DNA from: Candidatus Pelagibacter ubique HTCC1062 | Lineage (GTDB): Bacteria; Pseudomonadota; Alphaproteobacteria; Pelagibacterales; Pelagibacteraceae | NCBI RefSeq assembly: GCF_000012345.1 | Contig: NC_007205.1 | Location: forward strand, 1,230,001 to 1,262,000 | Reading direction: 5' to 3' | DNA length: 32,000 nucleotides | Shown: positions 539-19,283 of the stretch, piece after piece | Layout: each line of letters starts with the position of its first letter | Position numbering within the stretch: the first letter of the stretch is position 1 | The notes under the pieces: model-generated | The model's database searches: none | Told to the model about the DNA's origin: nothing | The model's input: only the letters and a program-made list of their open reading frames with translations | Translations under genes and position numbers: made by a program

Positions 539-570
539 AAGATTTATTATCTAGTTTAAGAGAATATTAG

Positions 571-2724: not shown

Positions 2725-2733
2725 ATTTTGCCT

Positions 2734-3759
2734 TTATTTTTTCTCCCTTGAAAAAACAGTATGAATTATTTTTGAGGGGTGAACGCTTCCAACAATTTTA
2801 TTATTTTCATCTGTAACAGCTACAGATTTTTCTTGAGTTAAAATTTTTTCAGCCACATTTTCAATTATTTCATTTTTCGAAACTTTGAAATCACTTAAAT
2901 TTTCAGTTTCTGGTTTTTCCATTAGATCTGCTATTTTTAGAACCTTTCCCCTAGGTACTTCTTCGGTAAATTTTCTTACATATTCAGTTGCTGGATTTAA
3001 GACAATGTTGGCGGGTGTATCCAATTGCTCAATAACTCCATCCTTCATAATTGCAATACGGTCAGCAAGTCTTAATGCCTCATCAAAATCATGAGTAATA
3101 AACATAATTGTTTTTTGTAACTTTTCTTGAAGTCTTAAAAATTCATCCTGCATTTCTTTTCTAATTAATGGATCTAATGCAGAAAATGGTTCATCTAAAA
3201 ACCAAATATCGGGCTCAACCGCTAATGATCGAGCAATACCTACTCTTTGTTGTTGTCCACCAGAAAGTTCTCTTGGAAAGTAGTTTTCTCTTCCATCAAG
3301 ACCTACAAGTTTAACCATTTCCATTGCTTTATTGATGCTATCTTGAGTTTTAATCCCTTTGATTTGAAGTGGAAAAGCAATATTTTCAACAACTGTTTTA
3401 TGAGGCAGTAAAGCAAAACTTTGAAAAACCATTCCCATCTTATTTCTTCTAAGTTCAATTAATTCTTTATTATTTAGTGTAAGTAAATCTTGACCGTCTA
3501 TATAAATTTTTCCGCTTGTTGCATCTGTTAATCTAGAAATACATCTTAGTAATGTTGATTTTCCTGAACCAGATAGCCCCATCACAACTAACATTTCACC
3601 TTTTACAACTTCAAAAGAGGCATTATTTACACCAACTATACACCCATTATCTTGAAATGTTTTTGCATCCACATTTCCATTTGCTTCATGAAGCATCTTC
3701 TTGGCGTTAGAGCCAAAAATTTTGTAAACTGATTCACATTTAATTACAGGATCGCTCAT
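2734..3759 (-). CDS. tmoV: ABC transporter ATP-binding protein, OpuAA/ProV-like (betaine/TMAO importer ATPase)
   Basis: Walker A GLSGSGKST, ABC signature LSGGQQQRV, Walker B IWFLDEPFSALD, H-loop ITHD. The C-terminal extension resembles the regulatory tail of ProV/OpuAA. Confidence 0.88.
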   Translation of the reverse strand: MSDPVIKCESVYKIFGSNAKKMLHEANGNVDAKTFQDNGCIVGVNNASFEVVKGEMLVVMGLSGSGKSTLLRCISRLTDATSGKIYIDGQDLLTLNNKELIELRRNKMGMVFQSFALLPHKTVVENIAFPLQIKGIKTQDSINKAMEMVKLVGLDGRENYFPRELSGGQQQRVGIARSLAVEPDIWFLDEPFSALDPLIRKEMQDEFLRLQEKLQKTIMFITHDFDEALRLADRIAIMKDGVIEQLDTPANIVLNPATEYVRKFTEEVPRGKVLKIADLMEKPETENLSDFKVSKNEIIENVAEKILTQEKSVAVTDENNKIVGSVHPSKIIHTVFSREKK

Positions 3760-3831
3760 AATGTATTAATAAGTTATACGAAATAGAAATAAAATACACT
3801 GTATATTATTTTTATTTATTGTTTTTCCTCC

Positions 3832-4380
3832 TTAAAAATTTTTAATAAAATAAACTCTTGTATCAATACCAGTACTTAAAAAACTTAAAGCTTCACCAGT
3901 AACAGTAATTGTTTCATCTATCCCAATGTTATTTCCACTTACCGTATAACCTGTAATACATTTGTTTTTGTCTTTGTCCCATTTAACAAATGTTTCATCA
4001 ATTAGATTTCCATTCTTAGTATAAATTTCATGTGCCTTAAAATTTAAAAAATTTGCACCCATAATTGCACGTTGTGGAATAAGTTTTGTTGCATTACAAA
4101 CTGCCTCATACAATTCATCTGTTAATTTAAAATGATTCGTTCCATCAAAAGTTACTAAAATACCTGATGGAAGACTTGATGTCAGTTCACTTAGTTTTCT
4201 TTCTTTTGCAATTCTTTCTTCTTCTATTTTCATCTTTTTAACTAATTCATCTCCTTGACCAAAAAAGATATTTAGAGTTACAAAAAATAAAATTACAACA
4301 ACGGTAACTGAAATAAGACCAACAAATTGATTAAGTGCATGAGGTAAGTTTCTTAATTTATCTAAATATTTTTTTTCCAT
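3832..4380 (-). CDS. Hypothetical membrane-anchored (N-terminal TM helix) exported protein
   Basis: The longest ORF reaches 4419 but would overlap the upstream gene by 28 nt. The internal Met at 4380 (MEKKYLDKLRNLPHALNQFVGLISVTVVVILFFVTL...) leaves an 11-nt gap. It has one hydrophobic helix, then a charged coiled segment and a soluble domain with 2 Cys. No family recognised. Confidence 0.55.
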   Translation of the reverse strand: MEKKYLDKLRNLPHALNQFVGLISVTVVVILFFVTLNIFFGQGDELVKKMKIEEERIAKERKLSELTSSLPSGILVTFDGTNHFKLTDELYEAVCNATKLIPQRAIMGANFLNFKAHEIYTKNGNLIDETFVKWDKDKNKCITGYTVSGNNIGIDETITVTGEALSFLSTGIDTRVYFIKNF

Positions 4381-4391
4381 TATTATTTTAA

Positions 4392-4769
4392 TTATTCTTG
4401 TAACTTCCCATTTTTCCAAATTCCTATTTTTTCCTTTCCATCGGACCAGGTAAATTTTCCTTCACCATTCATGAAGCCATTAGTCCATTCCCCATCATAA
4501 GTTGAGCCATCAGGAAAAGTTAAAATACCTTGACCACTCCATTCGCTATTTTTAAATTCACCTTTATAAATATAGCCATTTGGCCAAGTTTCAGTTCCAT
4601 TACCCTCTTTTTGCGTCTGAACCCACTCTCCTTCATAGGTGGTTTTATCTGTGTACACCCATTTTCCAAAGCCGTTTTCACAGTTTCCCTCTTTACATCC
4701 GGTACTTCGGGCTAGGGCTATAGATGTGGTTAAAAAACTTAAAATAATACAAATAAGATATTTTTTCAT
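4392..4769 (-). CDS. Exported MORN-repeat protein (125 aa)
   Basis: N-terminal signal peptide (MKKYLICIILSFLTTSIALA). It is followed by 3-4 MORN-type repeats (YEGEWVQTQKEGNG / YIYKGEFKNSEWSGQG / STYDGEWTNGFMNGEG). Confidence 0.7.
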   Translation of the reverse strand: MKKYLICIILSFLTTSIALARSTGCKEGNCENGFGKWVYTDKTTYEGEWVQTQKEGNGTETWPNGYIYKGEFKNSEWSGQGILTFPDGSTYDGEWTNGFMNGEGKFTWSDGKEKIGIWKNGKLQE

Positions 4770-4803
4770 TATTATATTTTACACAAAATTAGATAAAAAA
4801 AAA

Positions 4804-5283
4804 TCAGACTTTTTTCTCATTTTTTTTACATGAATAAAAAGAAATATCTTTTTCAGAGTTTTCACTTTTCATGTCTCTTGTAATTTCATGAATTAATTCA
4901 CCAGATTTTCTATTTATAATTCCTGATTCAGAGTAGTTTTTTTCTTCATCAATAGCTTTAAATAAAACTACGTCTTTGTTTACTATTCTAACTGTTAGTT
5001 TTTCTTTTTTTGAAAGAAATGAAGATAATCCATTTATTAAAAGTGTTTTTGGTTGTTTTGCATTGATTTCAAATTTATCTAAATCTTTATCCTCTAAATC
5101 CTTAGCTAAAAAAGTTTGATAATTATATTCTGCATTCTTAACTATTTTTTTTTCTAATTCACATACAAAGCTAAGACTAATATTTTCCTCTATATTCACA
5201 TCTTGTGCTAAAGAAAAATTAAAAACAAATAAACTTATGGAAATGTAAAAAAAATATTTCATAACTTGTATAATTTTTTTCAT
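4804..5283 (-). CDS. Hypothetical exported protein (159 aa)
   Basis: Signal-peptide-like N-terminus (…ISISLFVFNFSLA/QD). Lys/Glu-rich mature part with two Cys (positions 41 and 152). No recognisable family. Confidence 0.5.
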   Translation of the reverse strand: MKKIIQVMKYFFYISISLFVFNFSLAQDVNIEENISLSFVCELEKKIVKNAEYNYQTFLAKDLEDKDLDKFEINAKQPKTLLINGLSSFLSKKEKLTVRIVNKDVVLFKAIDEEKNYSESGIINRKSGELIHEITRDMKSENSEKDISFYSCKKNEKKV

Positions 5284-5317
5284 TAATAATATGAATGTTT
5301 CTTGAAAAATTACCTAT

Positions 5318-5350
5318 AAAAAAATCCCCCCCAATAAATATTGGGGGAGA
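5318..5350 (-). terminator. Rho-independent terminator downstream of tmoX
   Basis: On the minus strand: stem CCCCCAAT / ATTGGGGG (5328-5335 pairs with 5340-5347), 4-nt loop, followed by a T7 run (plus-strand A run 5318-5324). The C/G runs stand out in this AT-rich sequence. Confidence 0.7.
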
Positions 5351-5373
5351 TCTTAAATTATTTGTTTATATCC

Positions 5374-6318
5374 TTATTTAGTAAAAGGAGTCCAAACTGA
5401 CTTATTATCTGCAAGCCACTTTTTAGCTGCATCTTCGTGAGTCATTTTGTCAACGTCAACTAAAGCAGCCATTGCACCAATGTGACTTGTAGAGAATGAC
5501 ATCTTTTTAAACGTTGCAGCCGCAGCTGGATGAGTTTTTGGAAAGTCTGCATTTACAGCTTTTTTCAAGTAACCATCAGGCGAACCACATTTACCGTCAC
5601 CACCATCTTCTGGTCTACAACCAGCAGTATATGGAGGGAAGTCTATAAATGTAAAACCAGCACCATCTGTAAAGTTTGGTGTCCAGTTGAATATTATAGT
5701 TCCTCTTCCTTCTTTTTCAGCAGCTACTAATTCTGCCCAAAGTGCATCTGCACTTCCAGCAAATTTAACTGTCCAAAGATCTCCTAAGCCTAAAGCATCA
5801 ACCCTTTGAGGTATCAAATCTCCATGCCAAGTTTGAGGTCCTTCTAACATTCTTCCTTTTCCACCTGAGTCAGGTGTTGTAAAGTTTTTAGCACAAGCTG
5901 GATTTTTTAAAGCAGTCCAATCTGGTAGACCTGGACATAATCCTTTTTCAGCAACCCAGTTTGGATATCCCATATCTTCAAGCGTTCGAGCTTCATGATC
6001 TCCCCAATCAACTAAACCACCTTTATCAAGCGCTGTAGTAAATGATTTACCAAAAGCAGATTCCCAAACTTCATGAGATAAACTTACATCACCTAGACGA
6101 ATTGACTCATACACAGCTTGTGAATCAGTATTTACGTATTTTACGTTATTTCCCATACTTTCGAAAATTCCACCAATAACGTGAGCCATTACAATTTGGC
6201 TTGACCAGTTATGAGTTGGAATTACGATGGGCTTTTTACTGTCTGCTGCGTTAGAAATTCCAGCGAAACTTACTACTGAAATTACTAGGGCAGACATTAA
6301 TGATACTATTTTTTTCAT
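5374..6318 (-). CDS. tmoX: Periplasmic substrate-binding protein, glycine betaine/choline/TMAO (OpuAC-like) family
   Basis: Signal peptide MKKIVSLMSALVISVVSFAGISNA, and an OpuAC-type fold signature (NWSSQ.., Trp-rich aromatic-box residues). Strong SD (GGGAGAGAGAATAATG). Divergently placed next to tdm. Substrate assignment is by context. Confidence 0.8.
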   Translation of the reverse strand: MKKIVSLMSALVISVVSFAGISNAADSKKPIVIPTHNWSSQIVMAHVIGGIFESMGNNVKYVNTDSQAVYESIRLGDVSLSHEVWESAFGKSFTTALDKGGLVDWGDHEARTLEDMGYPNWVAEKGLCPGLPDWTALKNPACAKNFTTPDSGGKGRMLEGPQTWHGDLIPQRVDALGLGDLWTVKFAGSADALWAELVAAEKEGRGTIIFNWTPNFTDGAGFTFIDFPPYTAGCRPEDGGDGKCGSPDGYLKKAVNADFPKTHPAAAATFKKMSFSTSHIGAMAALVDVDKMTHEDAAKKWLADNKSVWTPFTK

Positions 6319-6433
6319 TATTCTCTCTCCCTTAATATTAAGTTATAGAAGTATGTTCTCATTTATTAAATTTATAGTCAATCCCTTATGAATATATTAT
6401 GCTTAAGGTAATTTATCAAAATTTACACTGGCA

Positions 6434-8761
6434 ATGCTACATACTAGTAAAGATATACGAAGTCCTGGTTTAAGAACGTTACCACCTGGAGTTGAAAGAT
6501 ATTTTGTAAGAGGTGGAGGTTTATCAATTATAGAAGTTTTACCAGAAGATAAAATAGAAATAATAAATGAAGAAGGAAAACAAATTTGTGAAATAATTGT
6601 TTTTAATTCAAAAGGTAAATCTGATTTATCTATTTTAAATTTAAAAGAAAATTCTAACGCAGATTTTTCAAAAAAAACTATCTCAAACGATGAAAAAATT
6701 TCAAAAATTTTAAAGAAAAAAAACTTAAATTTAAGTAATGCTAAAGCATCTATCATTTTTAACGATGATTGCTTGATGGGTGAAAAAATAACACTAACCT
6801 CAAAAGATAAATGCATTGTAATGATTGCTGCACCTGGTGATGCAATGAATGTTCATGAACAAAATCCTCCAACAGATTTAACGATTTATTTAAATAAAGC
6901 TAAATTTATTGAAACTGATGAACAATTTATCTTACCAGATCCACTTAGTGATCCAATTATAGAACAACTTGTAAAAAGAAGAACTGCTGAAACCTACAGT
7001 GTTAAAGCTGGTGAATATATTCAAATAATTGATCCAGGTGGAAGACAGTGTTCTGATTTTTTAGCTTTTGATACACAAAAATTAAATGACGGTATTGAAA
7101 GCATTATTGATGATAAAACAACACGAACCTTTATGGGTGGTGCCTACCCTGGGCCAGGATTATTTTCAAAGTTTTATGACGGCGATCATGAAGCTATGAT
7201 TGAAGTTGTGAGAGATACCGTTGGAAGACATGATACTTTCAATCTTGCTTGCACATCAAAATACTATGAAGACATGGGATATATGGGGCACATAAATTGT
7301 ACAGATAATTTTAATAATAGGCTGGATAAATATGACATCAATTCTCGAAAAAGCTGGTCTGCAATAAATCTTTTTTTCAATACTGCTATTGACGCTAATA
7401 ATGTTGCATCTTTTGATGAGCCTTGGTCAAGACCAGGGGATTATGTTTTGTTTAGGGCTTTAAAAGATTTAACTTGTATATCCTCTGCTTGCCCATGTGA
7501 TGTAGATGCTGCAAATGGCTGGAATCCAACTGATATTTTTGTTAGGACTTATTCAAAGGAAAAAAAATATTCAAAAGCAATAGCATTTAGAATGAAAACA
7601 GACTCAGAGCCTAAATTAACACAAGAGACAGGGTTTCATAAAAAAACTTCTGAGCTAACAAGAAATTTTGTTGAGTATAAAGGTTTTTGGCTTGCTAATA
7701 ATTTTACAAATTCAGGAACAATAAAAGAGTATACGGCTTGTAGAGAAAGTGCGATTGCAACAGACTTATCACCTCTTAGAAAGTTTGAAATTCTTGGACC
7801 TGATGCAGAAAATTTAATGCAATACACACTTACTAGAAATGTTAAAAAACTATCTATCGGACAAGTTGTTTATACAGCTATGTGTTATGAAAATGGCTGT
7901 ATGCTAGATGACGGTACTTTATTTAAATTAGGACAAGATAATTTTAGATGGATCGGTGGAGATGAATACAGTGGTGAATGGTTAAAAGAACAAGCTAAGA
8001 AGAAAAATTACAAAGTTTGGATAAAATCTGCAACAGATCATATTCATAACATTGCCGTTCAAGGTCCAAATAGTAGAAAAATTTTAGAAAAGTTTGTATG
8101 GACGGCGCCAATCCAACCATCAATCACTGAACTTGAATGGTTCAGATTTAATATTGCAAGAATAGATCATGAAACAGGTACGCCAATTGTTATTTCAAGA
8201 ACAGGTTACACGGGTGAACTTGGTTATGAAATATGGTGTCATCCAAAAGATGCTGCAGAAGTTTGGGATAAAGTTTGGGAAGCTGGTAAAGAGTTTGATA
8301 TTACCCCATTAGGTTTAGAAGCTTTAGACATGGTTCGTATAGAAGCTGGCCTTATTTTTTATGGTTATGAGTTTGACGATCAAACAGATCCATTTGAAGC
8401 TGGAATTGGTTTTACAGTTCCACTTAAAACTAAGGAAGATGATTTTATAGGTAAAGAAGAATTAATTAAAAGAAAAGCAAATCCACAAAAAAAATTAGTT
8501 GGTCTGGAATTAGTAGGTCATGAACCGGCATTACATGGAGATTGTGTTCATGTAGGTCGTGGTCAAGTAGGTGTAATAACAAGTGGAATGCTATCCCCTA
8601 AACTTGGAAAAAATATTGCGCTTTGTAGAATAGATGTAAAATATTCTGAGATTGGAACTGAAGTTGAAATTGGTAAACTTGATGGTCATCAAAAAAGAAT
8701 TGGAGCGAAAGTTGTACCTTTTCCTTTCTACGATCCAACAAAATCAAGAGTTAGAGCGTAA
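6434..8761 (+). CDS. tdm: Trimethylamine-N-oxide demethylase (DUF1989 N-terminal domain fused to GcvT-like aminomethyltransferase/THF-binding domain)
   Basis: 775 aa. The N-terminal half carries the DUF1989-type block AGEYIQIIDPGGRQCSDFLAFD. The C-terminal half carries GcvT motifs (ISRTGYTGELGYEIW, EALDMVRIEAGL). This fusion architecture is the hallmark of Tdm. Confidence 0.88.
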   Translation: MLHTSKDIRSPGLRTLPPGVERYFVRGGGLSIIEVLPEDKIEIINEEGKQICEIIVFNSKGKSDLSILNLKENSNADFSKKTISNDEKISKILKKKNLNLSNAKASIIFNDDCLMGEKITLTSKDKCIVMIAAPGDAMNVHEQNPPTDLTIYLNKAKFIETDEQFILPDPLSDPIIEQLVKRRTAETYSVKAGEYIQIIDPGGRQCSDFLAFDTQKLNDGIESIIDDKTTRTFMGGAYPGPGLFSKFYDGDHEAMIEVVRDTVGRHDTFNLACTSKYYEDMGYMGHINCTDNFNNRLDKYDINSRKSWSAINLFFNTAIDANNVASFDEPWSRPGDYVLFRALKDLTCISSACPCDVDAANGWNPTDIFVRTYSKEKKYSKAIAFRMKTDSEPKLTQETGFHKKTSELTRNFVEYKGFWLANNFTNSGTIKEYTACRESAIATDLSPLRKFEILGPDAENLMQYTLTRNVKKLSIGQVVYTAMCYENGCMLDDGTLFKLGQDNFRWIGGDEYSGEWLKEQAKKKNYKVWIKSATDHIHNIAVQGPNSRKILEKFVWTAPIQPSITELEWFRFNIARIDHETGTPIVISRTGYTGELGYEIWCHPKDAAEVWDKVWEAGKEFDITPLGLEALDMVRIEAGLIFYGYEFDDQTDPFEAGIGFTVPLKTKEDDFIGKEELIKRKANPQKKLVGLELVGHEPALHGDCVHVGRGQVGVITSGMLSPKLGKNIALCRIDVKYSEIGTEVEIGKLDGHQKRIGAKVVPFPFYDPTKSRVRA

Positions 8762-8764
8762 TAA

Positions 8765-9115
8765 ATGCCTAATAACAGTAAAGATCTTTTAAGTTTTTGG
8801 GAAGACCAAATGAAGCAATCCCATACTTCAAGCAACTATTTTTTTAGAAAATCCCCTTCTCATTATCATATGATGCTACTTGTAATGTCAGCTTACAAAC
8901 ATAATGAAAAGTTATCTGTTGAAGGGCTAAAGACAAAACTATTCAAAACTTCTAGACCAAAATCTGCATTGATTATTAATGAAGCTTGTGAAAAAGGATT
9001 CTTTCGTCTTGAAAAGACTTCAACTGACCAGCGAATAAAAAACATAGTGCCTAGTGAGACTTTTATTAATGAGTTTAAAGAATATTTAAATACACTGCAA
9101 AAGTTAAGTTATTAG
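8765..9115 (+). CDS. Small MarR-like winged-helix protein (116 aa), putative transcriptional regulator
   Basis: Starts 3 nt after the tdm stop (TAA TAA ATG). The segment LSVEGLKTKLFKTSRPKSALIINEACEKGFFRLEKTSTDQRIKNIVPSE matches the MarR wHTH pattern (recognition helix, then wing with D-x-R). It is shorter than typical MarR proteins. Confidence 0.55.
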   Translation: MPNNSKDLLSFWEDQMKQSHTSSNYFFRKSPSHYHMMLLVMSAYKHNEKLSVEGLKTKLFKTSRPKSALIINEACEKGFFRLEKTSTDQRIKNIVPSETFINEFKEYLNTLQKLSY

Positions 9116-9130
9116 TCACTTTTTAAAAAA

Positions 9131-9172
9131 ATCTATAATATATAATTTATATATATAATTTATAGATCTATA
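9131..9172. promoter_or_regulatory. AT-rich operator/promoter-like repeat cluster upstream of the SoxB-like gene
   Basis: Direct repeat TATAATTTATA at 9141-9151 and 9154-9164 (each contains a TATAAT -10-like hexamer). Perfect palindrome TATAGATCTATA at 9161-9172. Inverted repeat ATCTATAA (9131-9138) / TTATAGAT (9160-9167). Confidence 0.4.
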
Positions 9173-9214
9173 AAAAATTGTATTTTTTTTTATCCAAAAA
9201 AATATTGTTTTGCT

Positions 9215-10543
9215 ATGTCAACTTTACCAAAAAAAGCAAAAGTCGTAATTATAGGTGGTGGGATTCATGGCTTAAGTACAGCATGGAAACTTTCTGAAAC
9301 TTATAAAAACGAAAATGACATAGTTGTTCTAGAAAAAAAAGATATCGCAGCAGGTGCAAGTGGAATTGCTTGTGGTGTTGTTAGAAATAATTATTTTCAG
9401 CCCGCTATGAGAGAATTAATGGCTCACTCAGTATCGGTTTGGGAAAGTGATCCCAAAGCATTTAAATATAACTCTGTCGGTTATTTGCAAATTTCACCGG
9501 AAGTTATGCACGAAGATGTTGCTTCAATAGCTAAACAACAAAAAGCAATAGGATATGATTCAGAATTTATAGAAGGTGAAGCAGACTGCATGAAGTATAT
9601 GAAAAATATGTTTGGTGACTGGCAAGCTCAAGGGATAACTTCAGTTCTTCATGAAAAAAAAGGTGGTTATGCATTTAATAAAGATTCTATAAAAGCGCTT
9701 GAAGAAAAATCAACATCAAATGGGGTCAAGGTTGTTAAAGGGGTAACTGTTACAGGTTTTAAAAGAGGTAGTAACAGTAAAGCTGTTACAGGTGTTGAAA
9801 CAGACAAAGGTATTATTGAGTGCGATCAAGTTGTTGTTGGTGCTGGTCCTTGGGTGAGAGATTTTTGGAATATGCTAGAGCTACCAAAAACTGCAAAAAT
9901 TAAAGATAAAGATGGTAAATTTCATGAAACTGAAATGTGGAAATACTGGATGCTACAGGAAGGTGTAATTGGTGTTGATGAGGATTTTTTAAAAATGGAT
10001 AATGGTGGTCAACCACCTGTAATTCATGTCGATTCTACGGCTCCTTTATATTCTGATAAAACAAAAAAATTAATTACTGATAAAATTTGGGGAATTTATT
10101 ATAAACCTGATATCGAAGGTTTGGGAGTACAAGGTGGAACGTCACCCTACATAGTTGATAAACATTTTGATAAAGTTAATGTTGACCCCTATGGAATTGA
10201 GTCTCCTGAATTTCAAACTACAGAAGAGTTTAATGATATGTGGTGCTCAGCTTTAGCTCATTGTCAAAAAAGATTTGAAGGAAAATCTGATCTTTATAGA
10301 AAAGGCCCTTCAGGTGGACTTGGTTGCATGACCCCTGACTCATTTCCAATTTTTGATAAATTTTTAGAAAATGTTTACATGATTGCTGATGCTAACCACG
10401 GTTACAAAATGATTGGTGTTGGTGAACTTGTTGCAAAAGAAATTCTTGGAACTGAAAGTGATTTATTAAAACCGTTTAGATTCAACCGTTACGAGAAAGG
10501 TGAACTTCACCCAACTTCTAACAGTCCGTTCCCTTGGAGTTAA
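9215..10543 (+). CDS. FAD-dependent oxidoreductase, sarcosine oxidase beta-subunit (SoxB)/DAO family, stand-alone
   Basis: N-terminal dinucleotide fold VVIIGGGIHGLSTAWKL...VVLEK, followed by GASGIACGVVRNNY. This closely mirrors the SoxB N-terminus (GGGGHGL...RSNY). 442 aa. No alpha/gamma/delta subunit genes are adjacent. Confidence 0.75.
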   Translation: MSTLPKKAKVVIIGGGIHGLSTAWKLSETYKNENDIVVLEKKDIAAGASGIACGVVRNNYFQPAMRELMAHSVSVWESDPKAFKYNSVGYLQISPEVMHEDVASIAKQQKAIGYDSEFIEGEADCMKYMKNMFGDWQAQGITSVLHEKKGGYAFNKDSIKALEEKSTSNGVKVVKGVTVTGFKRGSNSKAVTGVETDKGIIECDQVVVGAGPWVRDFWNMLELPKTAKIKDKDGKFHETEMWKYWMLQEGVIGVDEDFLKMDNGGQPPVIHVDSTAPLYSDKTKKLITDKIWGIYYKPDIEGLGVQGGTSPYIVDKHFDKVNVDPYGIESPEFQTTEEFNDMWCSALAHCQKRFEGKSDLYRKGPSGGLGCMTPDSFPIFDKFLENVYMIADANHGYKMIGVGELVAKEILGTESDLLKPFRFNRYEKGELHPTSNSPFPWS

Positions 10544-10615
10544 ACTTCAAGCCTAGACACTAATAAATTTTTCAGTTACGGTTCGTTAAATAAAAATTCA
10601 TTAGAGGGAGAGATA

Positions 10616-12085
10616 ATGACAGATTTAGATAGACACGTAAGACAACCTGGTAGAGACAAATTAGTAAAGCAAGTTAGAGCTAAGATTAATGAGCTAGGTG
10701 TTGAATATATTTTTTTTCAATTTATTTCAGTAACTGGAAGAGTTGTAGGTAAAGGTATTCCTACTGATCACTGGGAAAGAACTTGCGAAAAAGGTTTTCA
10801 ATTAGTTTACGGTGCTACAGCTAACTTATTTGTTGATCGTCATGGAGATTATATTGGTTATGGTCCAGAAGCAAAAGAGCTAGTTGGTATTCCTGATCCT
10901 GAAACTTTTTGCCAACTCCCTTGGGATAAAAAAGTTGCAAGAGTGTTTGTTACTTGCTTTAGAAATAGAGAAGAAAGAGAAAACCCAGGTGCACACTTAA
11001 CTTCAGACTGCCGTGGAAATTTAAGAATACACGCTCAAGAATTTAAAAAGAAACACGGCTACCAATTAAGAGTTGGAACAGAGCCTGAAATGATGTGGTT
11101 AACTAAAAATGAAGATGGTTCACCAACAGGTAAAGGTTTTTCTAAACCCTACTGCTATCATATTGATCAATTCGAGTCGTTAAGACCAGTATTTATGAAA
11201 GTTTTTGAATACGCTAGAGCAATGGGCTTTGACATGATTCAAGGTGATCATGAGGATGCACCAGGACAATTAGAATTAAACTGGATGTATGATGACGTAT
11301 TAAGAAATGCAGATAGACTTTCAACTTATAGACAAATTTGTGCTCAAGTTGCAAGAGAGTTTAATTTGATAGCTTGCTTTATGACAAAACCTTTTATGGG
11401 AGTGTCAGCAAGTGGTTGTCATACTAATATGTCTTTGTGGAAAGGTGGAAAAGATAAAGTTAATAAATTATCCCACAAATCAATACCAGCGATGGATGAA
11501 GTTTTCACTTATGTTGAAGGTGGAACTAATTACTTTATGCCTGATACTAAAGATATTCAGTTACCAGGTAAGATTGGATTAAAAGCAATTGGTGGAGTAA
11601 TGAAACATTTAGGTGCATTAACTGCAATTGGATCATCAACTGTAAACTCTTATAGAAGATTATGGGATACAGGTTTTTGGGCTCCTGTTTATGCTGATTG
11701 GGGATTTCAAAACAGAACATGTGGATTAAGAGTTTCTGCACCAGGAAGATTTGAATATCGTTCAGTTGACTCAATGCATAATCCTTACTTGATGGGTTCA
11801 GGATTATTGAAATGTTTTGATGATGGGATAACAAATAATATTGATCCAGGAAAACCAGAATCTAGAAGTATGTACGATGCTCAGGCAGCTGGTAAAGAAG
11901 TTAAAAAATTACCTTTAAGTCTAGGTGAAGCTTTAGATCGTCTGGCAGAAGATGAAGTGATCAAAGCAGCTATGCCAGATGAAATGTATAAAGTTTTCCA
12001 TTGGTATAAAAATGATGAATGGGAAAGATTTTTAGGGGCAACAACTCAGTGGGACTTAGATACTTATCTAGATTGTCTACCGTAA
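10616..12085 (+). CDS. Glutamine synthetase-family protein, GmaS-like paralogue (module 1, 489 aa)
   Basis: GS catalytic-domain motifs (GTEPEMMW, DHEDAPGQLELNW, SGCHTNMSLW, NSYRRL). It shares the DHEDA.GQ.E.NW variant with the second GS-like gene rather than the classical GlnA HHEV motif. Strong SD GAGGGAGAGATAATG. Confidence 0.8.
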   Translation: MTDLDRHVRQPGRDKLVKQVRAKINELGVEYIFFQFISVTGRVVGKGIPTDHWERTCEKGFQLVYGATANLFVDRHGDYIGYGPEAKELVGIPDPETFCQLPWDKKVARVFVTCFRNREERENPGAHLTSDCRGNLRIHAQEFKKKHGYQLRVGTEPEMMWLTKNEDGSPTGKGFSKPYCYHIDQFESLRPVFMKVFEYARAMGFDMIQGDHEDAPGQLELNWMYDDVLRNADRLSTYRQICAQVAREFNLIACFMTKPFMGVSASGCHTNMSLWKGGKDKVNKLSHKSIPAMDEVFTYVEGGTNYFMPDTKDIQLPGKIGLKAIGGVMKHLGALTAIGSSTVNSYRRLWDTGFWAPVYADWGFQNRTCGLRVSAPGRFEYRSVDSMHNPYLMGSGLLKCFDDGITNNIDPGKPESRSMYDAQAAGKEVKKLPLSLGEALDRLAEDEVIKAAMPDEMYKVFHWYKNDEWERFLGATTQWDLDTYLDCLP

Positions 12086-12109
12086 TCTTTAATAAAATAG
12101 GGGAAATAT

Positions 12110-13054
12110 ATGTGTGGAATAGCAGGATTAATACATAGAGGAAAATCATCCAATGTAGGAAGTGAGCTACAAGGAATGCTTCAAGCTTTAAAACATAGAG
12201 GAGAAGATTCTACAGGTTATGCTTTGTATGGAGATACTGATGGTAAAAATTTTATCATGCGTTTTAAAGTTGGAGAAAATGTTGGTGAAGGAAGTTCATC
12301 CATAATGGAAGATGTTTCTGTTTATGACAAAAGAAAGAAAATTGTTGATCAATATTTATCTGAACTAGGTGCTAAAATAGTAAAAGAGGAAAGAATTTTA
12401 CCCTACTCTTTGAGATATGAGCTTGATTATGATGTAAAAGATCTACTAGAATTTTCACAAAAGATTGAAAGTATTCCAGGTGTTGAAATTTTATCTATGG
12501 GAAAATCCTTAGAGGTAATTAAAGATTTAGGAAATGCTCAAATGGTTCTTGATAGGTATGATTTAGGTAAAGTAGTTGGAACTCATGCAATTGGCCATGC
12601 AAGAATGGCTACAGAATCTGGTGTAGATATTAAATCAGCCCACCCTTTTTGGGGTTATCCTTTCAGTGATGTATCAGTAGTTCATAACGGTCAGTTAACT
12701 AACTATTGGAACAATAGAAGAATGCTTGAAAATAAAGGCATGAGATTTATGTCTGAGTGCGATTCAGAATTAATAGCGGTTTATATTGCTCAAAAAATGA
12801 AAGAAGGAGCAAGCCTTGAAGAGGGCATGAAAGCTTCATTAACAGGTCTTGATGGAGTGTTTACATATTTTGTTGCAACTAAAGATTCTTTAGGAATGGC
12901 AAAAGATACTATGGCTGCAAAACCTTTGGTTCTTTATGAGTCAGATGATTTAGTGGCAATGGGCTCAGAAGAAATAGCAATCAGATCAGTTCTACCACAA
13001 GAGATAGATACATATGATCCATTTGATGGAGAGGTAAAAGTATGGCAAATTTAA
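12110..13054 (+). CDS. Class II (Ntn) glutamine amidotransferase, GltB domain-1-like; N-methylglutamate synthase subunit A-like (module 1)
   Basis: Catalytic N-terminal Cys (MCGIAGL). Conserved THAIGHARMATES and VVHNGQLTN blocks. Followed by GXGXG and FMN subunits. Confidence 0.8.
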   Translation: MCGIAGLIHRGKSSNVGSELQGMLQALKHRGEDSTGYALYGDTDGKNFIMRFKVGENVGEGSSSIMEDVSVYDKRKKIVDQYLSELGAKIVKEERILPYSLRYELDYDVKDLLEFSQKIESIPGVEILSMGKSLEVIKDLGNAQMVLDRYDLGKVVGTHAIGHARMATESGVDIKSAHPFWGYPFSDVSVVHNGQLTNYWNNRRMLENKGMRFMSECDSELIAVYIAQKMKEGASLEEGMKASLTGLDGVFTYFVATKDSLGMAKDTMAAKPLVLYESDDLVAMGSEEIAIRSVLPQEIDTYDPFDGEVKVWQI

Positions 13055-13896
13055 AGAATACAGAGAAAAAAACTAAAGCCCAGTCAATGGGTATGCACTC
13101 AGAAGTTTTAACAGGAAGAACTCAACAAAAGTTTTTTAATCCTGATGAAGGTGAAAACCTTTATTATTTTGGAACTTACGATGTAGATTTTAATAAAAGA
13201 ACAGAGCTAGATGTTAAAGATATGACAGCTCCAGAAGCTAATAAAGAAATTGATAACTTAATGAGCCAAGGATTTGGCACAATTGTTATTAAAAACCCTC
13301 AAGGTAAACATAGTTTAGGGGTTGGTATTTTAAATAAATTAAATTTAATTTTTGAGGGAAGTTTAGGTTATTTTGGTATGGGTTCATGTGATGGACCTAC
13401 TGTTAGAATTAATGGTAGAGTTGGTTGGTCTTGTGCAGAAAACTTAATGGCAGGAAAAGTTGTTATAGAGAAAAATGCAGGGTCTTGCTTTGGTGCCGCT
13501 ATAAGAGGTGGTGATTTAATTTGCAAAGGAAGTGTTGGTGCAAGAACTGGAATTGACATGAAGGGTGGAACTATCATTGTTGGTGGTGATGCTGGAGCGT
13601 TCACTGGTTTTATGATGCAAAGAGGAAGAATAATTATTCTTGGTGATGTTGGAATAAACTTAGGTGACTCTATGTATGATGGCACAATCTTTATTGGTGG
13701 AAAAATAGGATCATTTGGAAGTGATGCTGTGCCTGCTGATCTAACTGCTAGTGATCAAGATTGGTTAAAACGAAAATTAAAAGTTGCAGAAATTGGTGAA
13801 AAATTTGATGTTAGTAAAATGACTAAAATTGTAGCTGGTAAAAAACTTTGGAACTATGACAATCTAGAACCTCATGAAAAGAAAGGAGCTATCTAA
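13042..13896 (+). CDS. GXGXG-motif protein, GltB C-terminal-domain-like; N-methylglutamate synthase subunit B-like (module 1)
   Basis: Repeated beta-helix G-x-G-x-G turns (GKVVIEKNAGSCFGAAIRGGDLICKGSVGARTGIDMKGGTIIVGGDAG...). The start overlaps the upstream gene by 13 nt. An alternative Met at 13087/13093 is possible. It has an N-terminal extension of roughly 45 aa relative to the module 2 paralogue. Confidence 0.78.
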   Translation: MANLKNTEKKTKAQSMGMHSEVLTGRTQQKFFNPDEGENLYYFGTYDVDFNKRTELDVKDMTAPEANKEIDNLMSQGFGTIVIKNPQGKHSLGVGILNKLNLIFEGSLGYFGMGSCDGPTVRINGRVGWSCAENLMAGKVVIEKNAGSCFGAAIRGGDLICKGSVGARTGIDMKGGTIIVGGDAGAFTGFMMQRGRIIILGDVGINLGDSMYDGTIFIGGKIGSFGSDAVPADLTASDQDWLKRKLKVAEIGEKFDVSKMTKIVAGKKLWNYDNLEPHEKKGAI

Positions 13897-15320
13897 TGGC
13901 TAAAAAGAAAACAAAAAAAAATGAAAAAAAATTAAAAAAAGCTAAAGGTAGTGTTGGTGGAAAAGCTGATGTTCATGCACATGAAGATGGTAAAAGAAAT
14001 AAAAGTCTATTAGGTCACAATGCTATTTTTACTCCTGAAGTTATAGACGATATTCATATCAAAGCTCAACTTGGAAGATACAGAATGCGTGGAATGGCAT
14101 TAATGAAAAAAATTCCAACATTTGATGATTTAGTATTCCTACCAGGAACTCTTACTAGATTTGTAATTGAAGGTTATAGAGAAAAATGTGAAACAAAAAC
14201 TATTATCGGTCCTAATTGTGAGAACCCGATTGAACTAGATATACCAGTATATATTACAGGTATGAGTTTTGGTGCGCTTTCTTATGAAGCTAAAACTGCT
14301 TTAGCAAGAGGAGCAACAATGGCTGGAAGTGCTACTTGTTCAGGAGAGGGTGGAATGATTCCAGATGAAAGAAGATATTCTGAAAAATGGTACTATCAAT
14401 GTATTCAATCAAGATACGGGTTTAACCCTCACCACGCTCAACTTGCTGATGCAATAGAAGTGTTTATTGGTCAAGGACAAAAAGTTGGAATGGGTGGACA
14501 TTTAATGGGTCAAAAAGTTACTGATCAAGTTGCAGAAATGAGATCTTTACCATCTGGTATTGATCAAAGATCTCCAGCAAGACACCCCGACTGGCTAGGT
14601 CCAGATGATTTAGCTTTAAAAGTTGAAGAATTAAGACAACTTACAAAAAACAAAGTACCAATTCAGTTAAAACTAGGTGCATCAAAAGTTTATGATGATG
14701 TTCGTATGGCTGCAAAATGTAATCCTGACTCAATCTTTTTAGATGGTATGGAAGGTTCAACTGGAGCTGGTCCACATATAGCTGCTGCAAATACTGGTAT
14801 CCCAGGAATTGCTGCAATCAGAGAAGCAAGAAGAGCTATTGATGATGTGGGTAAAACTGGACAGGTAACTTTAATTTATGCAGGTGGTATTAGAGATGGT
14901 GCTGATATGGCGAAGGCTTTAGCCTTAGGTGCTGATGCAATAGCAATTGGAACTGGTGCTTTAATAGCCTTAAACTGCAATAAAGATATTCCAGAAGCAA
15001 ACTTTGAAAAAGAAATGGGTGTTAAGGCTGGTGACTGTTATCACTGCCACACTGGTCGTTGTCCAGTTGGTGTTGCAACCCAAGATCCTAAATTAAGAGC
15101 TAGATTAAATCCTGATGATGCTGCTTTAAGAGTTTATAATTACTTGCATGCAATGACATTAGAGGCTCAACTTTTAGCAAGAGCTTGTGGTAAAACTAAT
15201 ATTCACTCATTAGAACCAGAGGATTTAGCTGCACTAACAATGGAAGCTTCTGCACTAGCAAAAGTTCCTTTAACAGGAACCAACTTCACTGTTGGTGTTG
15301 ATAACTATCACAAAATATAA
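13896..15320 (+). CDS. FMN-binding glutamate synthase domain protein (GltB domain-2-like); N-methylglutamate synthase subunit C-like (module 1)
   Basis: Conserved blocks ITGMSFGALS, GQG.K.G.GGHL.GQKV, LDGMEGSTGA, AGGIRDGADMAKALALGADA, CHTGRCPVGVATQDP. TAATG stop/start overlap with the preceding gene. Lys-rich N-terminal tail. Confidence 0.85.
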   Translation: MAKKKTKKNEKKLKKAKGSVGGKADVHAHEDGKRNKSLLGHNAIFTPEVIDDIHIKAQLGRYRMRGMALMKKIPTFDDLVFLPGTLTRFVIEGYREKCETKTIIGPNCENPIELDIPVYITGMSFGALSYEAKTALARGATMAGSATCSGEGGMIPDERRYSEKWYYQCIQSRYGFNPHHAQLADAIEVFIGQGQKVGMGGHLMGQKVTDQVAEMRSLPSGIDQRSPARHPDWLGPDDLALKVEELRQLTKNKVPIQLKLGASKVYDDVRMAAKCNPDSIFLDGMEGSTGAGPHIAAANTGIPGIAAIREARRAIDDVGKTGQVTLIYAGGIRDGADMAKALALGADAIAIGTGALIALNCNKDIPEANFEKEMGVKAGDCYHCHTGRCPVGVATQDPKLRARLNPDDAALRVYNYLHAMTLEAQLLARACGKTNIHSLEPEDLAALTMEASALAKVPLTGTNFTVGVDNYHKI

Positions 15321-15329
15321 GAGGTAAAT

Positions 15330-15731
15330 ATGGTTAAGAAAAAAACGAAAATAAAAGTAAAAAAAGAAAATCTAGGTGGAAAGTCTAAAGAAACTGCTAG
15401 AGAAAAAATGATTGGGCAACATATTGGTTATAGATATGATGTTAACTTACTCCCTGATTATAAAAAAATCACTCCATTCTTAAAAAAGTATATTGAAGCA
15501 ATGGGATGGGATGATCTTAATTGGCTAGAAGATATACACATGGGTTATGAAGAAGATAGACCTGCTGTATTTTGTAGAAATGCAAATGGCTGGGTTACAA
15601 TTCCAAAATCAATCAAATTGCCAAACAACCAACAAGACAGAGATATGATCGCAAGAGAGCTTTTAGTTAAGTTTCAAATGTCTAAAAAACACCCTCTTGT
15701 TGATTTGAAAAAAGCTTACCTTAAGTTTTAG
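15330..15731 (+). CDS. Hypothetical protein (133 aa) with Lys-rich N-terminus, embedded between the mgsC-like gene and amt
   Basis: ORF with an AGAGG SD, 9 nt after the upstream stop. No family recognised. The N-terminus MVKKKTKIKVKKENLGGK resembles that of the preceding gene product. Confidence 0.5.
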   Translation: MVKKKTKIKVKKENLGGKSKETAREKMIGQHIGYRYDVNLLPDYKKITPFLKKYIEAMGWDDLNWLEDIHMGYEEDRPAVFCRNANGWVTIPKSIKLPNNQQDRDMIARELLVKFQMSKKHPLVDLKKAYLKF

Positions 15732-15801
15732 TACCTCAATCAAAGGTTGATTATTTTTCAAAACTTGTAGTTATTACTTGCTTATTTAAGCAATGTATAG
15801 T

Positions 15802-15828
15802 TTGTCACGTCTCTATAAATTTTATAGT
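15802..15828 (+). promoter_or_regulatory. Putative sigma70-type promoter for amt
   Basis: TTGTCA (15802-15807) and TATAGT (15823-15828) with a 15-nt spacer, about 28 nt upstream of the amt ATG. The palindrome TTGCTTA-TT-TAAGCAA lies just upstream at 15778-15793. Confidence 0.35.
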
Positions 15829-15856
15829 CTTTCTTAAAACTAATAGGAGAGAGATT

Positions 15857-17257
15857 ATGGATGATCAATTAGGCGCTCTTACAGTTATATTTACAGAATT
15901 TTACTACTGGGTAACAGTGGTATTAATGTTCCTGATTCACGTCGGGTTTTGTATGTATGAAGTTGGAGCCTCACGATACAAGCATCACCAACATACTTTA
16001 ATGAAAAATACCATGGTAATACCACTAGTAACGGTAACCTGGTTTTTCTTTGGTTGGTGGATTTACTGGGCATTCCCAACAGGACCGGGAATAGCACCTT
16101 CAATAATGAATGAGAGTTCAGCATTAATTACTGATGAAAGTACTTTTAGTGCGAAATGGTATGTGGCAAATACTGAATTTATGGCTGTCAACTTAGGTGA
16201 CCGTATAAGTGGAGTATTCTGGGCTGCATTCTTACTATTTTCATGGACAGCTGCTTCAATTGTTTCTGGAGCAATCATTGAAAGAATTACAACTTTTGCA
16301 TTTGGTATTTTAGCAATTGCAATTGGTTCGTGTTTCTGGGTAATTGATGCTGCTTGGGGATGGCACTTTGATGGATGGATGCTTAAAATTTTAGGGTATC
16401 ATGACGCTTATGCATCAGGAGTAATTCACGCAATTGCGGGTGGATTTGCTTTAGGTGTTCTAATCGTACTAGGACCTAGAATTGGAAAATTCTCATCAAG
16501 TGGTGAACCAAGAAATATAGGACCAAGAAATCCATGGCTAGTTACAGTTGGATTATTTTTAATCTATACTGGTTTCTGGGGATTTTATGCGGCATGTAAT
16601 ATACCAATATTTGATCTTGGACCTGAGTATGGAATGGAAGGTGTCACATACTGGACAGCAACAAACATATATGTAACCCCAACCACACTGAGTGGAATAA
16701 CCTATAACTTCTTGATGTCACTATCAGGTGGATTATTGGCTGGATACGTGGTCGCTAAAGGTGATCCATTCTGGACTTACTCAAGTGGACTGGCTGGTAT
16801 CATCTGTGCATCTGCAGGTAATGATTTGTATCACCCGATACAAGCAATGCTTATTGGTGCAATCGGTGTAGTTATTTCATATAAAATGCATTACTGGGTT
16901 GAACGTAAGTTCAAAATTGATGATGCAGTTGGTGCAGTAGCAGTGCATGGTTATGCAGGGTTTGTTGGTCTTGTAATTTGTGGATTTGTTTTAAATGGCT
17001 ATCCTTCATCTGGATACAGTGTTGGAGCTATGTGGGACGGATCAACTTATGCATCAATCAATCCACTGGGACAATTCCTTGGAGCAATTATAATGTTCGG
17101 AGTTCTTGGAATGTTACCAGGTTATGTTTTAGCTAGAATACTAAGCGCATTTGGCAAATTAAGAATACCACGTGAAGTTGAAATAGCTGGACTAGACTAT
17201 GAAATAATGGAGGACGATAGAGAAGCTGAAAAAGCGGTCGCCTCTGCAACTAGGTAA
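15857..17257 (+). CDS. amt: Ammonium/methylammonium transporter, Amt family (divergent)
   Basis: About 11 hydrophobic helices. Amt signatures are present in modified form (HDAYASGVIHAIAGGFALG and DDAVGAVAVHGYAGFVGL contain the twin-His positions). Strong SD AGGAGAGAGATTATG. Confidence 0.85.
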   Translation: MDDQLGALTVIFTEFYYWVTVVLMFLIHVGFCMYEVGASRYKHHQHTLMKNTMVIPLVTVTWFFFGWWIYWAFPTGPGIAPSIMNESSALITDESTFSAKWYVANTEFMAVNLGDRISGVFWAAFLLFSWTAASIVSGAIIERITTFAFGILAIAIGSCFWVIDAAWGWHFDGWMLKILGYHDAYASGVIHAIAGGFALGVLIVLGPRIGKFSSSGEPRNIGPRNPWLVTVGLFLIYTGFWGFYAACNIPIFDLGPEYGMEGVTYWTATNIYVTPTTLSGITYNFLMSLSGGLLAGYVVAKGDPFWTYSSGLAGIICASAGNDLYHPIQAMLIGAIGVVISYKMHYWVERKFKIDDAVGAVAVHGYAGFVGLVICGFVLNGYPSSGYSVGAMWDGSTYASINPLGQFLGAIIMFGVLGMLPGYVLARILSAFGKLRIPREVEIAGLDYEIMEDDREAEKAVASATR

Positions 17258-17268
17258 AGGAGAAAAAT

Positions 17269-17493
17269 ATGGCTACAGTTACAAACTGGATAGATCATTT
17301 AAGTGCAGAAGAGGTTGTCGGAGCCATTTATCCGGGAGCTGGATCCACTGAAACTTTGCTAGTTATTCTTGGTGTAGTTTTTTGGATTGGGTGGCATGTC
17401 ATCACAGCTAAATCTGAGAGTGAAAAACTCTCAAGATTAGCTAAGAAAAGACATGGTGCAAATGATCATAAAAGCAATATTACCGACTGGTAA
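17269..17493 (+). CDS. Small single-pass membrane protein (74 aa) coupled to amt
   Basis: Starts 11 nt after the amt stop with an AAGGAG SD. It has one TM helix (LLVILGVVFWIGWHVITA) and a basic C-terminal tail. No family recognised. Confidence 0.55.
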   Translation: MATVTNWIDHLSAEEVVGAIYPGAGSTETLLVILGVVFWIGWHVITAKSESEKLSRLAKKRHGANDHKSNITDW

Positions 17494-17508
17494 TATTAAA
17501 TAAACTTT

Positions 17509-17540
17509 GGGCGCTGCTTAATTGTGGCGCCCTTTTTTTT
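17509..17540 (+). terminator. Rho-independent terminator ending the module 1/amt transcription unit
   Basis: GGGCGC (17509-17514) pairs with GCGCCC (17527-17532), 12-nt loop, then T8 (17533-17540). This fully GC stem stands out in the AT-rich window. Confidence 0.8.
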
Positions 17541-17553
17541 ATAAAAATTCTAT

Positions 17554-17706: not shown

Positions 17707-17718
17707 ACTTAAAAATTT

Positions 17719-18597: not shown

Positions 18598-18600
18598 ATT

Positions 18601-19281: not shown

Positions 19282-19283
19282 TT

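Follow-up and report, generated by a model that had tools for sequence, protein, structure and literature searches.

The window analysed here is a stretch of 32,000 nucleotides of the Candidatus Pelagibacter ubique HTCC1062 genome (NC_007205.1, positions 1,230,001 to 1,262,000 of the forward strand). Its subject is SAR11_1304, a 442-residue open reading frame (ORF) at positions 9215-10543 of the plus strand that we confirmed to be real and refer to as FLAV; it encodes a predicted flavin adenine dinucleotide (FAD)-dependent amine oxidoreductase of the DAO/SoxB superfamily, as judged from PF01266, TIGR01373 and an AlphaFold model. SAR11 bacteria, the most abundant heterotrophs of the sea, demethylate trimethylamine N-oxide (TMAO) to dimethylamine, and a SAR11 dimethylamine 'bottleneck' has been invoked for marine aerosols derived from this amine. 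We know of no SAR11 enzyme that acts on dimethylamine, and to our knowledge SAR11_1304 has never been assigned a function. FLAV therefore bears on the use of methylated amines by the ocean's most abundant bacteria.

The window opens with the C-terminal end of tmm (2-538), a TMAO ABC transporter on the minus strand (571-6318) and the TMAO demethylase gene tdm (6434-8761, plus strand; NF053776, 1177 bits). Between tdm and FLAV lie orf116 (8765-9115, plus strand), whose 116-residue product belongs to no recognised family, and an AT-rich spacer of 99 nt. All that follows up to gmaS is on the plus strand. A spacer of ~72 nt (10544-10615) leads from FLAV to GS1 (SAR11_1305; 10616-12085; 489 residues; PF00120), a divergent ligase resembling glutamine synthetase (GS) and GmaS, and then to three genes for subunits like those of N-methylglutamate synthase, MgsA1 (12110-13054), MgsB1 (13042-13896) and MgsC1 (13896-15320). 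The conserved orf133 (15330-15731; family not recognised), a divergent Amt-family transporter gene (amt; 15857-17257; PF00909), the canonical mgsABC (17719-20600) and the canonical gmaS (20644-21969; TIGR03105, 616 bits) come next, followed by a DAP-ammonia-lyase-like gene (21973-23115). This order agrees with the published locus tags of HTCC1062, in which tdm is SAR11_1303, SAR11_1304 is a 'monomeric sarcosine oxidase', and SAR11_1305 (glnT), SAR11_1308 (gltB2), SAR11_1310 (amt), SAR11_1313-1315 (glxBCD), SAR11_1316 (glnT/gmaS) and SAR11_1317 (ygeX) follow (PMC3160333, PMC3870248). A scan of positions 6000-18000 against Rfam gave no credible family, the single match being far below its gathering score.

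We use the term unit for the string FLAV-GS1-MgsA1-MgsB1-MgsC1-orf133, and module 1 for the unit without FLAV. An earlier note, made from the letters of this DNA alone, had set the gene between tdm and 'GmaS/Mgs modules'. The position is right, with orf116 intervening on the tdm side; the modules are two different things, the divergent module 1 and the canonical mgsABC-gmaS. Most SAR11 loci and ~60% of the same-genus genomes lack the canonical mgsABC; in these genomes only MgsC1 is found and gmaS is kept. In most Pelagibacter, the divergent Mgs1ABC, and not the enzyme named in the literature, is therefore the only N-methylglutamate-synthase-like enzyme, and it is the core one of the clade.

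Of the 116 same-genus genomes sampled, 107 have FLAV, at 79-95% identity, and it also occurs in three other genera of the Pelagibacterales (~65%). In one closed genome (G183, L113, positions 300-17900) tmm, tmoW, tdm, FLAV and amt are all frameshifted; with so many genes affected, the cause looks like assembly indels and not pseudogenes. In an evenly sampled set of 401 genomes of the class we counted 45 carriers in 38 genera; the family is found in ~10% of these genomes. The carriers fall into tier A (38 genomes; 48-66% identity outside SAR11) and tier B (7 genomes; 36-42%). Tier-A FLAV (FLAV-A) and GS1 occur together in 28 genomes, FLAV-A alone in 10, GS1 alone in 10 and neither in 353; for tdm and GS1 the corresponding figures are 24, 9 (tdm only), 14 (GS1 only) and 354, and for tdm and FLAV-A 19, 14 (tdm only), 19 (FLAV-A only) and 349. 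These are hand tallies of genomes that are not phylogenetically independent, and the same caution applies to the counts within the genus, where FLAV and MgsC are both present in 105 genomes and both absent from 9, with 2 genomes having FLAV alone and none MgsC alone. FLAV is thus a widespread and distinct family coupled to a second GS/Mgs module, with tdm as its frequent but not obligate neighbour.

Gene order tells the same story of coupling. Among 81 related loci, GS1-MgsA1-MgsB1-MgsC1-orf133 follows FLAV in all 74 that have enough contig. The earlier note had described FLAV as an orphan; in fact it is the usual first gene of the unit, which occurs in SAR11 and also across many further families of Alphaproteobacteria. 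At the tier-A loci, from ~14 families, module 1 stands beside FLAV in 13 of 15, tdm in 2 of 15 and the divergent Amt gene in ~7 of 15; the five tier-B loci have none of the three. The same genes in the same order also follow a FLAV homologue of 35% identity on L029, an unrelated contig of 1.5 Mb. Amt homologues (61-68% identity) accompany the unit in L029, L114, L124, L125, L127 and L128. GS1 is ~70% identical across alphaproteobacterial families and scores 291 bits with the GmaS model TIGR03105 (cutoff 469.6). The MgsA1/B1/C1 set carries GATase class II, GXGXG and Glu_synthase domains, and MgsC1 is 52-53% identical to canonical MgsC. The product of orf133 has no Pfam match, is 64-98% identical across loci and is always encoded after MgsC1. 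A specific pairing of FLAV with orf133 was considered and rejected: orf133 goes with MgsC1 and is absent from G015, G147 and Pelagibius, where FLAV persists. At L123, FLAV and module 1 are adjacent to a canonical mgsABC, a soxBDAG-type set and gmaS, and each module there therefore has its own oxidoreductase.

Two further genes recur around the unit (in L029 at 16546-17954) and are candidate members of it. A protein of ~189 residues without known family often follows orf133 outside SAR11 (L029, L115, L116, L117, L120, L123, L124, L125 and L127). A CN-hydrolase, an amidase of the nitrilase superfamily, accompanies the module in L029, L117 and L127, and in G308 one lies beside an mgdABC-like set ~12 kb from the unit.

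The link between FLAV and module 1 is strong, yet the two are separable in both directions. In the closed genomes G015 (L110) and G031 (L111) only orf116-FLAV is kept (~9000-12400), inverted and beside the DAP-ammonia-lyase-like gene; tmm/tmoXVW/tdm and the block from GS1 to gmaS are wholly absent from these loci. In G147 (L112) the genes from GS1 to amt have been deleted, which brings FLAV directly up to the canonical mgsABC-gmaS; a 40-residue remnant of GS1 at 10251-10367 marks the place. In Pelagibius marinus, FLAV adjoins a true soxBDAG set, which lies divergently and has its own beta subunit, and a DMGDH-like gene; this genome has canonical mgsC-gmaS and lacks GS1 and tdm. In L107 FLAV has a soxA-family gene, an amidase and also a GbdR-type regulator beside it; in L126 it comes after a GbcA-like Rieske oxygenase, and a GbcB-like reductase and LysR regulator are present as well. 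In the tree, such module-free members stand scattered among the module-linked ones, and the same orthologue has therefore been reused in other N-demethylation contexts. In the opposite direction, module 1 occurs without FLAV in the closed genome G269, where a GntR regulator takes the place of FLAV, and in G558. Other genomes have the parts in different combinations: G281 (94% complete) has FLAV, GS1 and gmaS, and no SoxB/MgdA was found in it; G308 (100% complete) has FLAV and module 1, with an mgdABC-like set 12 kb away, and has no canonical gmaS, mgsC or tdm. At C1:1772184-1774960 of G292, a true soxB (675 bits) comes directly downstream of a GS1-like gene (65% identity), and no MgsC-type gene was found in that genome.

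Profile, sequence and structure comparisons all lead to the beta subunit of heterotetrameric sarcosine oxidase as the nearest relative of FLAV. The Pfam DAO model (PF01266) scores 119.6 bits against a gathering threshold of 27.9 but covers residues 9-221 only (profile positions 1-213 of 353); GGGIHGL occupies residues 14-20 and VVRNNY residues 55-60. The best curated hidden Markov model (HMM), soxB (TIGR01373), gives 87 bits over residues 7-209 only, against a cutoff of 529.45, and the true SoxB copies of the same genome score 710 and 670 bits. Models of ThiO, MTOX, pipecolate oxidase, DadA and MSOX score below soxB and far under their own cutoffs (MSOX, TIGR01377, 38.2 bits, cutoff 479.65; MTOX, NF008425, 51.9 bits, cutoff 257). 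Sequence matches in the PDB are SoxB beta chains (E ~1e-15), over residues 5-211 and a weak C-terminal stretch. The AlphaFold model, computed from an alignment that left out three apparently frameshifted sequences (P0173, P0184 and P0124), has a complete two-domain fold (pLDDT 77, pTM 0.81). Its best Foldseek matches are again SoxB beta subunits (3AD7_B, 2GAG_B and related chains; TM-score 0.66-0.77, ~20% identity), followed by the PH L-proline dehydrogenase beta subunit, L-amino-acid deaminase, DMGO and MSOX. The substrate domain is ~55 residues longer than that of SoxB and has no match at the sequence level; the protein ends at residue 442, and Pfam finds no C-terminal GcvT domain in it. In a quick maximum-likelihood tree (IQ-TREE) the family forms a clade of its own (SH-aLRT 99), with long branches to true SoxB and DMGDH-type domains.

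The SoxB-like character proposed in the earlier note is thus confirmed by the top HMM, sequence and fold matches. The comparison of families that it called for places FLAV nearest to SoxB and, with every score under its cutoff, outside SoxB/MgdA, MSOX, DadA and ThiO. By sequence, FLAV is a SoxB/MSOX-type amine oxidoreductase of a distinct family and no orthologue of SoxB/MgdA. The published label 'monomeric sarcosine oxidase' is unsupported as a statement of orthology; it and the JGI label 'methylglutamate dehydrogenase subunit A' are similarity labels only, and both annotations are corrected here.

To what kind of substrate this fold is adapted can be read in part from its conserved residues. 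In the Sox family the carboxylate is bound by the conserved Arg52, Tyr55 and Lys348 (PMC12582975). Their counterparts in FLAV are R57-x-x-Y60 and K398, assigned through the SoxB alignment and motif spacing rather than a direct MSOX alignment, as segment searches of the PDB for the latter returned SoxB or chance matches only. In the HMMER alignment R57 equals SoxB beta-Arg69 and K398 beta-Lys358. In a survey of 32 family members (25 tier A, 7 tier B), R57, Y60 and K398 are invariant in all 32, as are C53, E147, H271 and H395; the GxGxxG glycines G14, G16 and G19 are conserved in the family. The pattern argues for an active site suited to a carboxylate-bearing N-substituted alpha-amino acid, and not to free di- or monomethylamine, and, together with the coupling of the family to module 1, it narrows the candidate substrates to a small, testable list.

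The covalent-flavin positions, which the earlier note had wanted checked, give a divided answer. The SoxB histidine that links flavin mononucleotide (FMN; beta-His173 region, ...AKHDH...) aligns to Asn155 of FLAV, a position held by Asn in 25/25 tier-A members and by Thr or Pro in tier B, and the FAD-linking histidine of DMGDH (..TWHAAG..) aligns to Ile51; both histidines are thus absent. C371, in a GGLGC-x-TPD motif, lies near Cys315 of MSOX, which carries 8-alpha-S-cysteinyl FAD, with the spacing off by three residues. Because C371 is Ala in 3/25 tier-A and 7/7 tier-B members, a cysteinyl flavin link at this site does not appear to be a family feature.

Two sets of copies depart from the usual picture. 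The FLAV copy at L029 (10001-11365) is an intact ORF of 454 residues that has lost GxGxxG, C53, R57, Y60, E147, H271 and D375, despite neighbours GS1, MgsC1 and orf133 that are still 71-79% identical to those of SAR11; by its sequence it may be either degenerate and non-catalytic or repurposed. The tier-B loci L129-L133 (34-42% identity) keep all the invariant active-site residues and never lie beside module 1; one of these copies is near an amidase and a GS-like gene.

FLAV has an upstream region of its own, as the earlier note had supposed. The 99-nt AT-rich spacer at 9116-9214 contains several palindromes, and its AT-rich core is conserved in an alignment of 72 distinct SAR11 sequences. No Shine-Dalgarno sequence precedes the FLAV start codon; around FLAV, a scan for sigma-70 consensus sites was not above chance (9 found, 8.3 expected) and a scan for terminators was not above shuffled expectation. 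The palindrome CAAAAAAATATTGTTTTG at 9195-9212, with related forms in other SAR11 strains, lies directly 5' of the ATG, and from its sequence and placement it may be a translational control element. The FLAV-GS1 gap, of 63-80 nt in 69 of the 74 loci, contains a strong Shine-Dalgarno sequence for GS1 and a conserved promoter-like motif, TAGACA (10554-10559), 17 nt and TACGGT (10577-10582), whose conserved form in a 64-sequence alignment is TAGACA-17-TAnnnT. In L030, L031, L033 and L034 this gap has an extra AT-rich insert of ~45 nt that resembles the element upstream of FLAV, and the likeness suggests that the two share an operator. Gene orf116 precedes FLAV in 67 of 69 tdm-bearing SAR11 loci and stays with it in G015 and G031, whose loci no longer have tdm, module 1, amt or gmaS. 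Its product has no significant Pfam or NCBIfam match; we regard it as a candidate regulator. The DAP-ammonia-lyase-like gene always closes the island and is still found beside orf116-FLAV where all else has been lost; it may therefore be part of one nitrogen-scavenging regulon with them.

Published expression data point to nitrogen. In HTCC1062 the FLAV protein was detected only under nitrogen limitation, with its mRNA up 2.3-fold, in a medium of dimethylsulfoniopropionate, oxaloacetate and pyruvate only, without methylamines (PMC3870248). SAR11_1304 is among the two most strongly nitrogen-starvation-induced proteins of SAR11, and is described in print as a nitrogen-starvation-induced putative amine demethylase or deaminase (PMC3870248). 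Separate conserved elements upstream of FLAV and GS1, together with opposite changes in their expression, suggest that the two are under separate control. Words from positions 8600-12200 were found at 56-81% in eight metatranscriptome runs, a figure that says nothing on transcript ends or levels.

What we show for FLAV is its fold and family, its conserved residues, its gene order and distribution and, from published work, its expression; its substrate, products, electron acceptor and mode of regulation are inferred. We propose, with moderate confidence, that it is a stand-alone, single-subunit oxidoreductase of N-methyl(alkyl)-glutamate or another N-methyl-amino acid. Acting on an N-methylated (N-alkylated) alpha-amino acid, the enzyme would oxidise its C-N bond, and hydrolysis of the imine would release the free amino acid and formaldehyde. 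In SAR11 the most likely substrate would be N-methyl- or N-alkyl-glutamate supplied by the adjacent GS1 and Mgs1ABC (with orf133), so that FLAV would regenerate glutamate for module 1, a task that falls to the four-subunit MgdABCD in the classical N-methylglutamate pathway, and would do so without a folate-binding subunit. FLAV has its own upstream region and is set apart from GS1 by a promoter-like element; it is switched on by nitrogen starvation, in keeping with a nitrogen-scavenging use of methylamines. This proposal is supported by the modelled fold, whose nearest relatives are N-methyl-amino-acid oxidases, by the invariant carboxylate anchor, by the synteny with module 1 and the paired architecture at L123, by the nitrogen-limited expression, by the module-free contexts in Pelagibius, L107 and L126, which are also N-demethylation loci, and by G281, where FLAV, GS1 and gmaS occur and no SoxB/MgdA was found in a genome 94% complete. 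The earlier note was right to count FLAV to methylated-amine metabolism; of the two steps it offered, N-methylglutamate to glutamate fits the residues Arg57, Tyr60 and Lys398, invariant in 32/32 members, and the conversion of free dimethylamine to monomethylamine is disfavoured by the same residues.

Several observations weigh against this assignment. As tdm, gmaS and Mgs are absent from the whole closed genome of G015, the FLAV substrate there cannot be endogenous N-methylglutamate. G269 and G558, with module 1 alone, show that FLAV is not essential to the module. FLAV rose under nitrogen limitation while GS1 (0.67x) and MgsC1 (0.66x) were slightly down (Smith 2013), so FLAV is not co-regulated with them. 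The two soxBDAG sets of HTCC1062 could already cover N-methylglutamate (Sun 2011, PMC3160333), and G308 has an Mgd-like set besides FLAV. The substrate domain, longer than that of SoxB and unmatched in sequence, gives no guide to side-chain specificity. Finally, the literature citing the locus tag contains no assay of SAR11_1304 or its family.

A more specific, tentative and rather unlikely extension of the N-methyl-amino-acid assignment is that FLAV acts jointly with module 1 as the dimethylamine route so far missing in SAR11 and in many tdm-bearing bacteria without DmmDABC. In the proposed sequence, GS1 would gamma-glutamylate dimethylamine, Mgs1ABC (with orf133) would make N,N-dimethylglutamate, FLAV would convert this to N-methylglutamate, and an enzyme of SoxBDAG/MgdABCD type would take the second methyl group. 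Such a route would be a glutamate-based analogue of the series dimethylglycine, sarcosine, glycine. It would account for the presence of both FLAV and an Mgd-like enzyme alongside one synthase module (G308, L123, SAR11), and for the association of tdm with module 1 (24 of 33 tdm-bearing genomes).

Of the other explanations, we consider it unlikely that FLAV is a general nitrogen-scavenging oxidase of exogenous amino or imino acids (sarcosine, other N-methyl amino acids, glycine, D-amino acids, opine-like compounds), with a genomic rather than metabolic link to module 1. Induction by nitrogen starvation in a medium without methylamine would be expected of such an enzyme, as would the retention of orf116-FLAV next to the DAP-ammonia-lyase-like gene where the methylamine genes are lacking (G015 and G031). 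The 10 of 38 carriers without GS1, the separate promoter-like elements with regulation opposite to that of GS1, and the weak HMM similarity to ThiO and MTOX are also in its favour. The adjacency of GS1 across ~14 families, despite 35-45% sequence divergence, is nevertheless hard to explain without a shared pathway, and module 1 without FLAV was never found in 105 same-genus genomes.

It is improbable that FLAV acts on free amines, converting dimethylamine to monomethylamine and formaldehyde, or monomethylamine to ammonia and formaldehyde, and so filling the step of DmmDABC. SAR11 lacks dmmDABC, which leaves this step open, and SAR11_1304 has been named as an unconfirmed candidate for dimethylamine oxidation (PMC5520151). 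FLAV lies beside or abuts tdm in SAR11, MarineAlpha5, L117 and L124, occurs in 19/33 tdm-bearing against 19/368 tdm-free genomes and is induced by nitrogen starvation, and stand-alone use would account for its retention in G015. Against all this stands the invariant Arg/Tyr/Lys carboxylate anchor: dimethylamine has no carboxylate and is therefore disfavoured as a substrate, and the near structural relatives of FLAV all act on amino or imino acids. Moreover, FLAV occurs in Pelagibius and G147 without any tdm that passes the curated cutoff, G015 could take monomethylamine no further since gmaS and Mgs are absent, and tdm tracks module 1 (24/33) more closely than FLAV (19/33). No recognisable dmm genes were seen in the tdm neighbourhoods of tdm-positive, GS1-negative genomes, a search that had no trustworthy Dmm query behind it; GltS-like paralogues (30-38% identity) were rejected as dmm candidates, being generic 'glutamate synthase family' proteins with unrelated neighbours.

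In the PuuB/PuuA and PauB/PauA systems a DAO-family flavoprotein is paired with a GS-like ligase, and the placement of FLAV directly upstream of such a ligase mirrors this pairing. FLAV might by this analogy oxidise the gamma-glutamylated amine made by the ligase, and not an Mgs product. The G292 arrangement, a GS1-like gene directly upstream of a Sox-type oxidase with no MgsC, is in line with such a role, as are the amidase or CN-hydrolase genes with the unit in L029, L107, L117 and L127. We nonetheless judge it quite improbable: once gamma-glutamylated, mono- or dimethylamine offers no amine nitrogen that could be oxidised, the 25 NCBIfam matches listed for FLAV include no PuuB-type model, and the MgsABC-like synthase that is always in the module implies that the amide is consumed by the synthase.

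Partner subunits were looked for as well. The window has no Sox alpha, gamma or delta genes, and no sox partner genes stand beside FLAV in the 81 related loci save the coincidental soxBDAG in Pelagibius, in keeping with the earlier remark that such genes do not flank it; the rest of the genome, which that note had wanted searched, contains two complete soxB+soxA sets, at C1:1031922-1036448 and C1:1214312-1218821 of its single 1,308,759-bp contig. That FLAV is a spare beta subunit assembling with SoxA/D/G (MgdB/C/D) encoded elsewhere is highly improbable, for although SoxB beta is its closest fold and one of the two soxBDAG operons lies ~20 kb from it, each operon has its own beta subunit, the FMN histidine is Asn155 in FLAV and Thr or Pro in tier B, the soxB score is far below its cutoff, the substrate domain is remodelled, and G281 has FLAV but no SoxB-type set was found there.

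Set against known systems, FLAV resembles each in part. Compared with dimethylglycine oxidase, DMGDH and SARDH, it lacks the His-linked FAD (Ile51) and the GcvT domain. With PuuA/PuuB and PauA/PauB it shares the pairing of a GS-like ligase with a DAO-family flavoprotein, but those systems have no MgsABC-like synthase and their flavoprotein oxidises a distal free amine, which is absent from adducts of mono- and dimethylamine. SoxB (PDB 1VRQ/3AD7/2GAG) and MgdA are alike in the two-domain FAD amine-oxidoreductase fold (TM-score 0.66-0.77), in GxGxxG, in beta-Arg69, the arginine of (I/V)VR-xNY, in beta-Lys358, the lysine of G(Y/F)K, and in a methylated-amine gene context. FLAV differs from them in its ~20% identity, a score of 87 bits against a cutoff of 529 with only the N-terminal half aligning, the absence of the FMN histidine (Asn155) and of alpha, delta and gamma partners, hence of a folate site, a substrate domain ~55 residues longer and a separate clade. 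MSOX and MTOX, like FLAV, are each encoded as a single polypeptide, with an anchor of Arg52/Tyr55/Lys348 type and an xHG(F/Y)K motif, and the expected chemistry would be the same, oxidative N-demethylation with release of free formaldehyde; FLAV is unlike them in length (442 against ~385 residues) and in HMM score (38 against 480 and 52 against 257). A parallel in gene content is the N-methylglutamate pathway of Methyloversatilis, Methylocella and Methylobacterium (GmaS, MgsABC, MgdABCD), with the same succession of ligase, synthase and oxidoreductase and with homologous ligase and synthase genes. Here, however, ligase and synthase belong to a paralogous set that has diverged (MgsC1 52-53% identical, GS1 under the GmaS cutoff), a protein of 133 residues is added, and a one-subunit flavoprotein would replace the four-subunit dehydrogenase.

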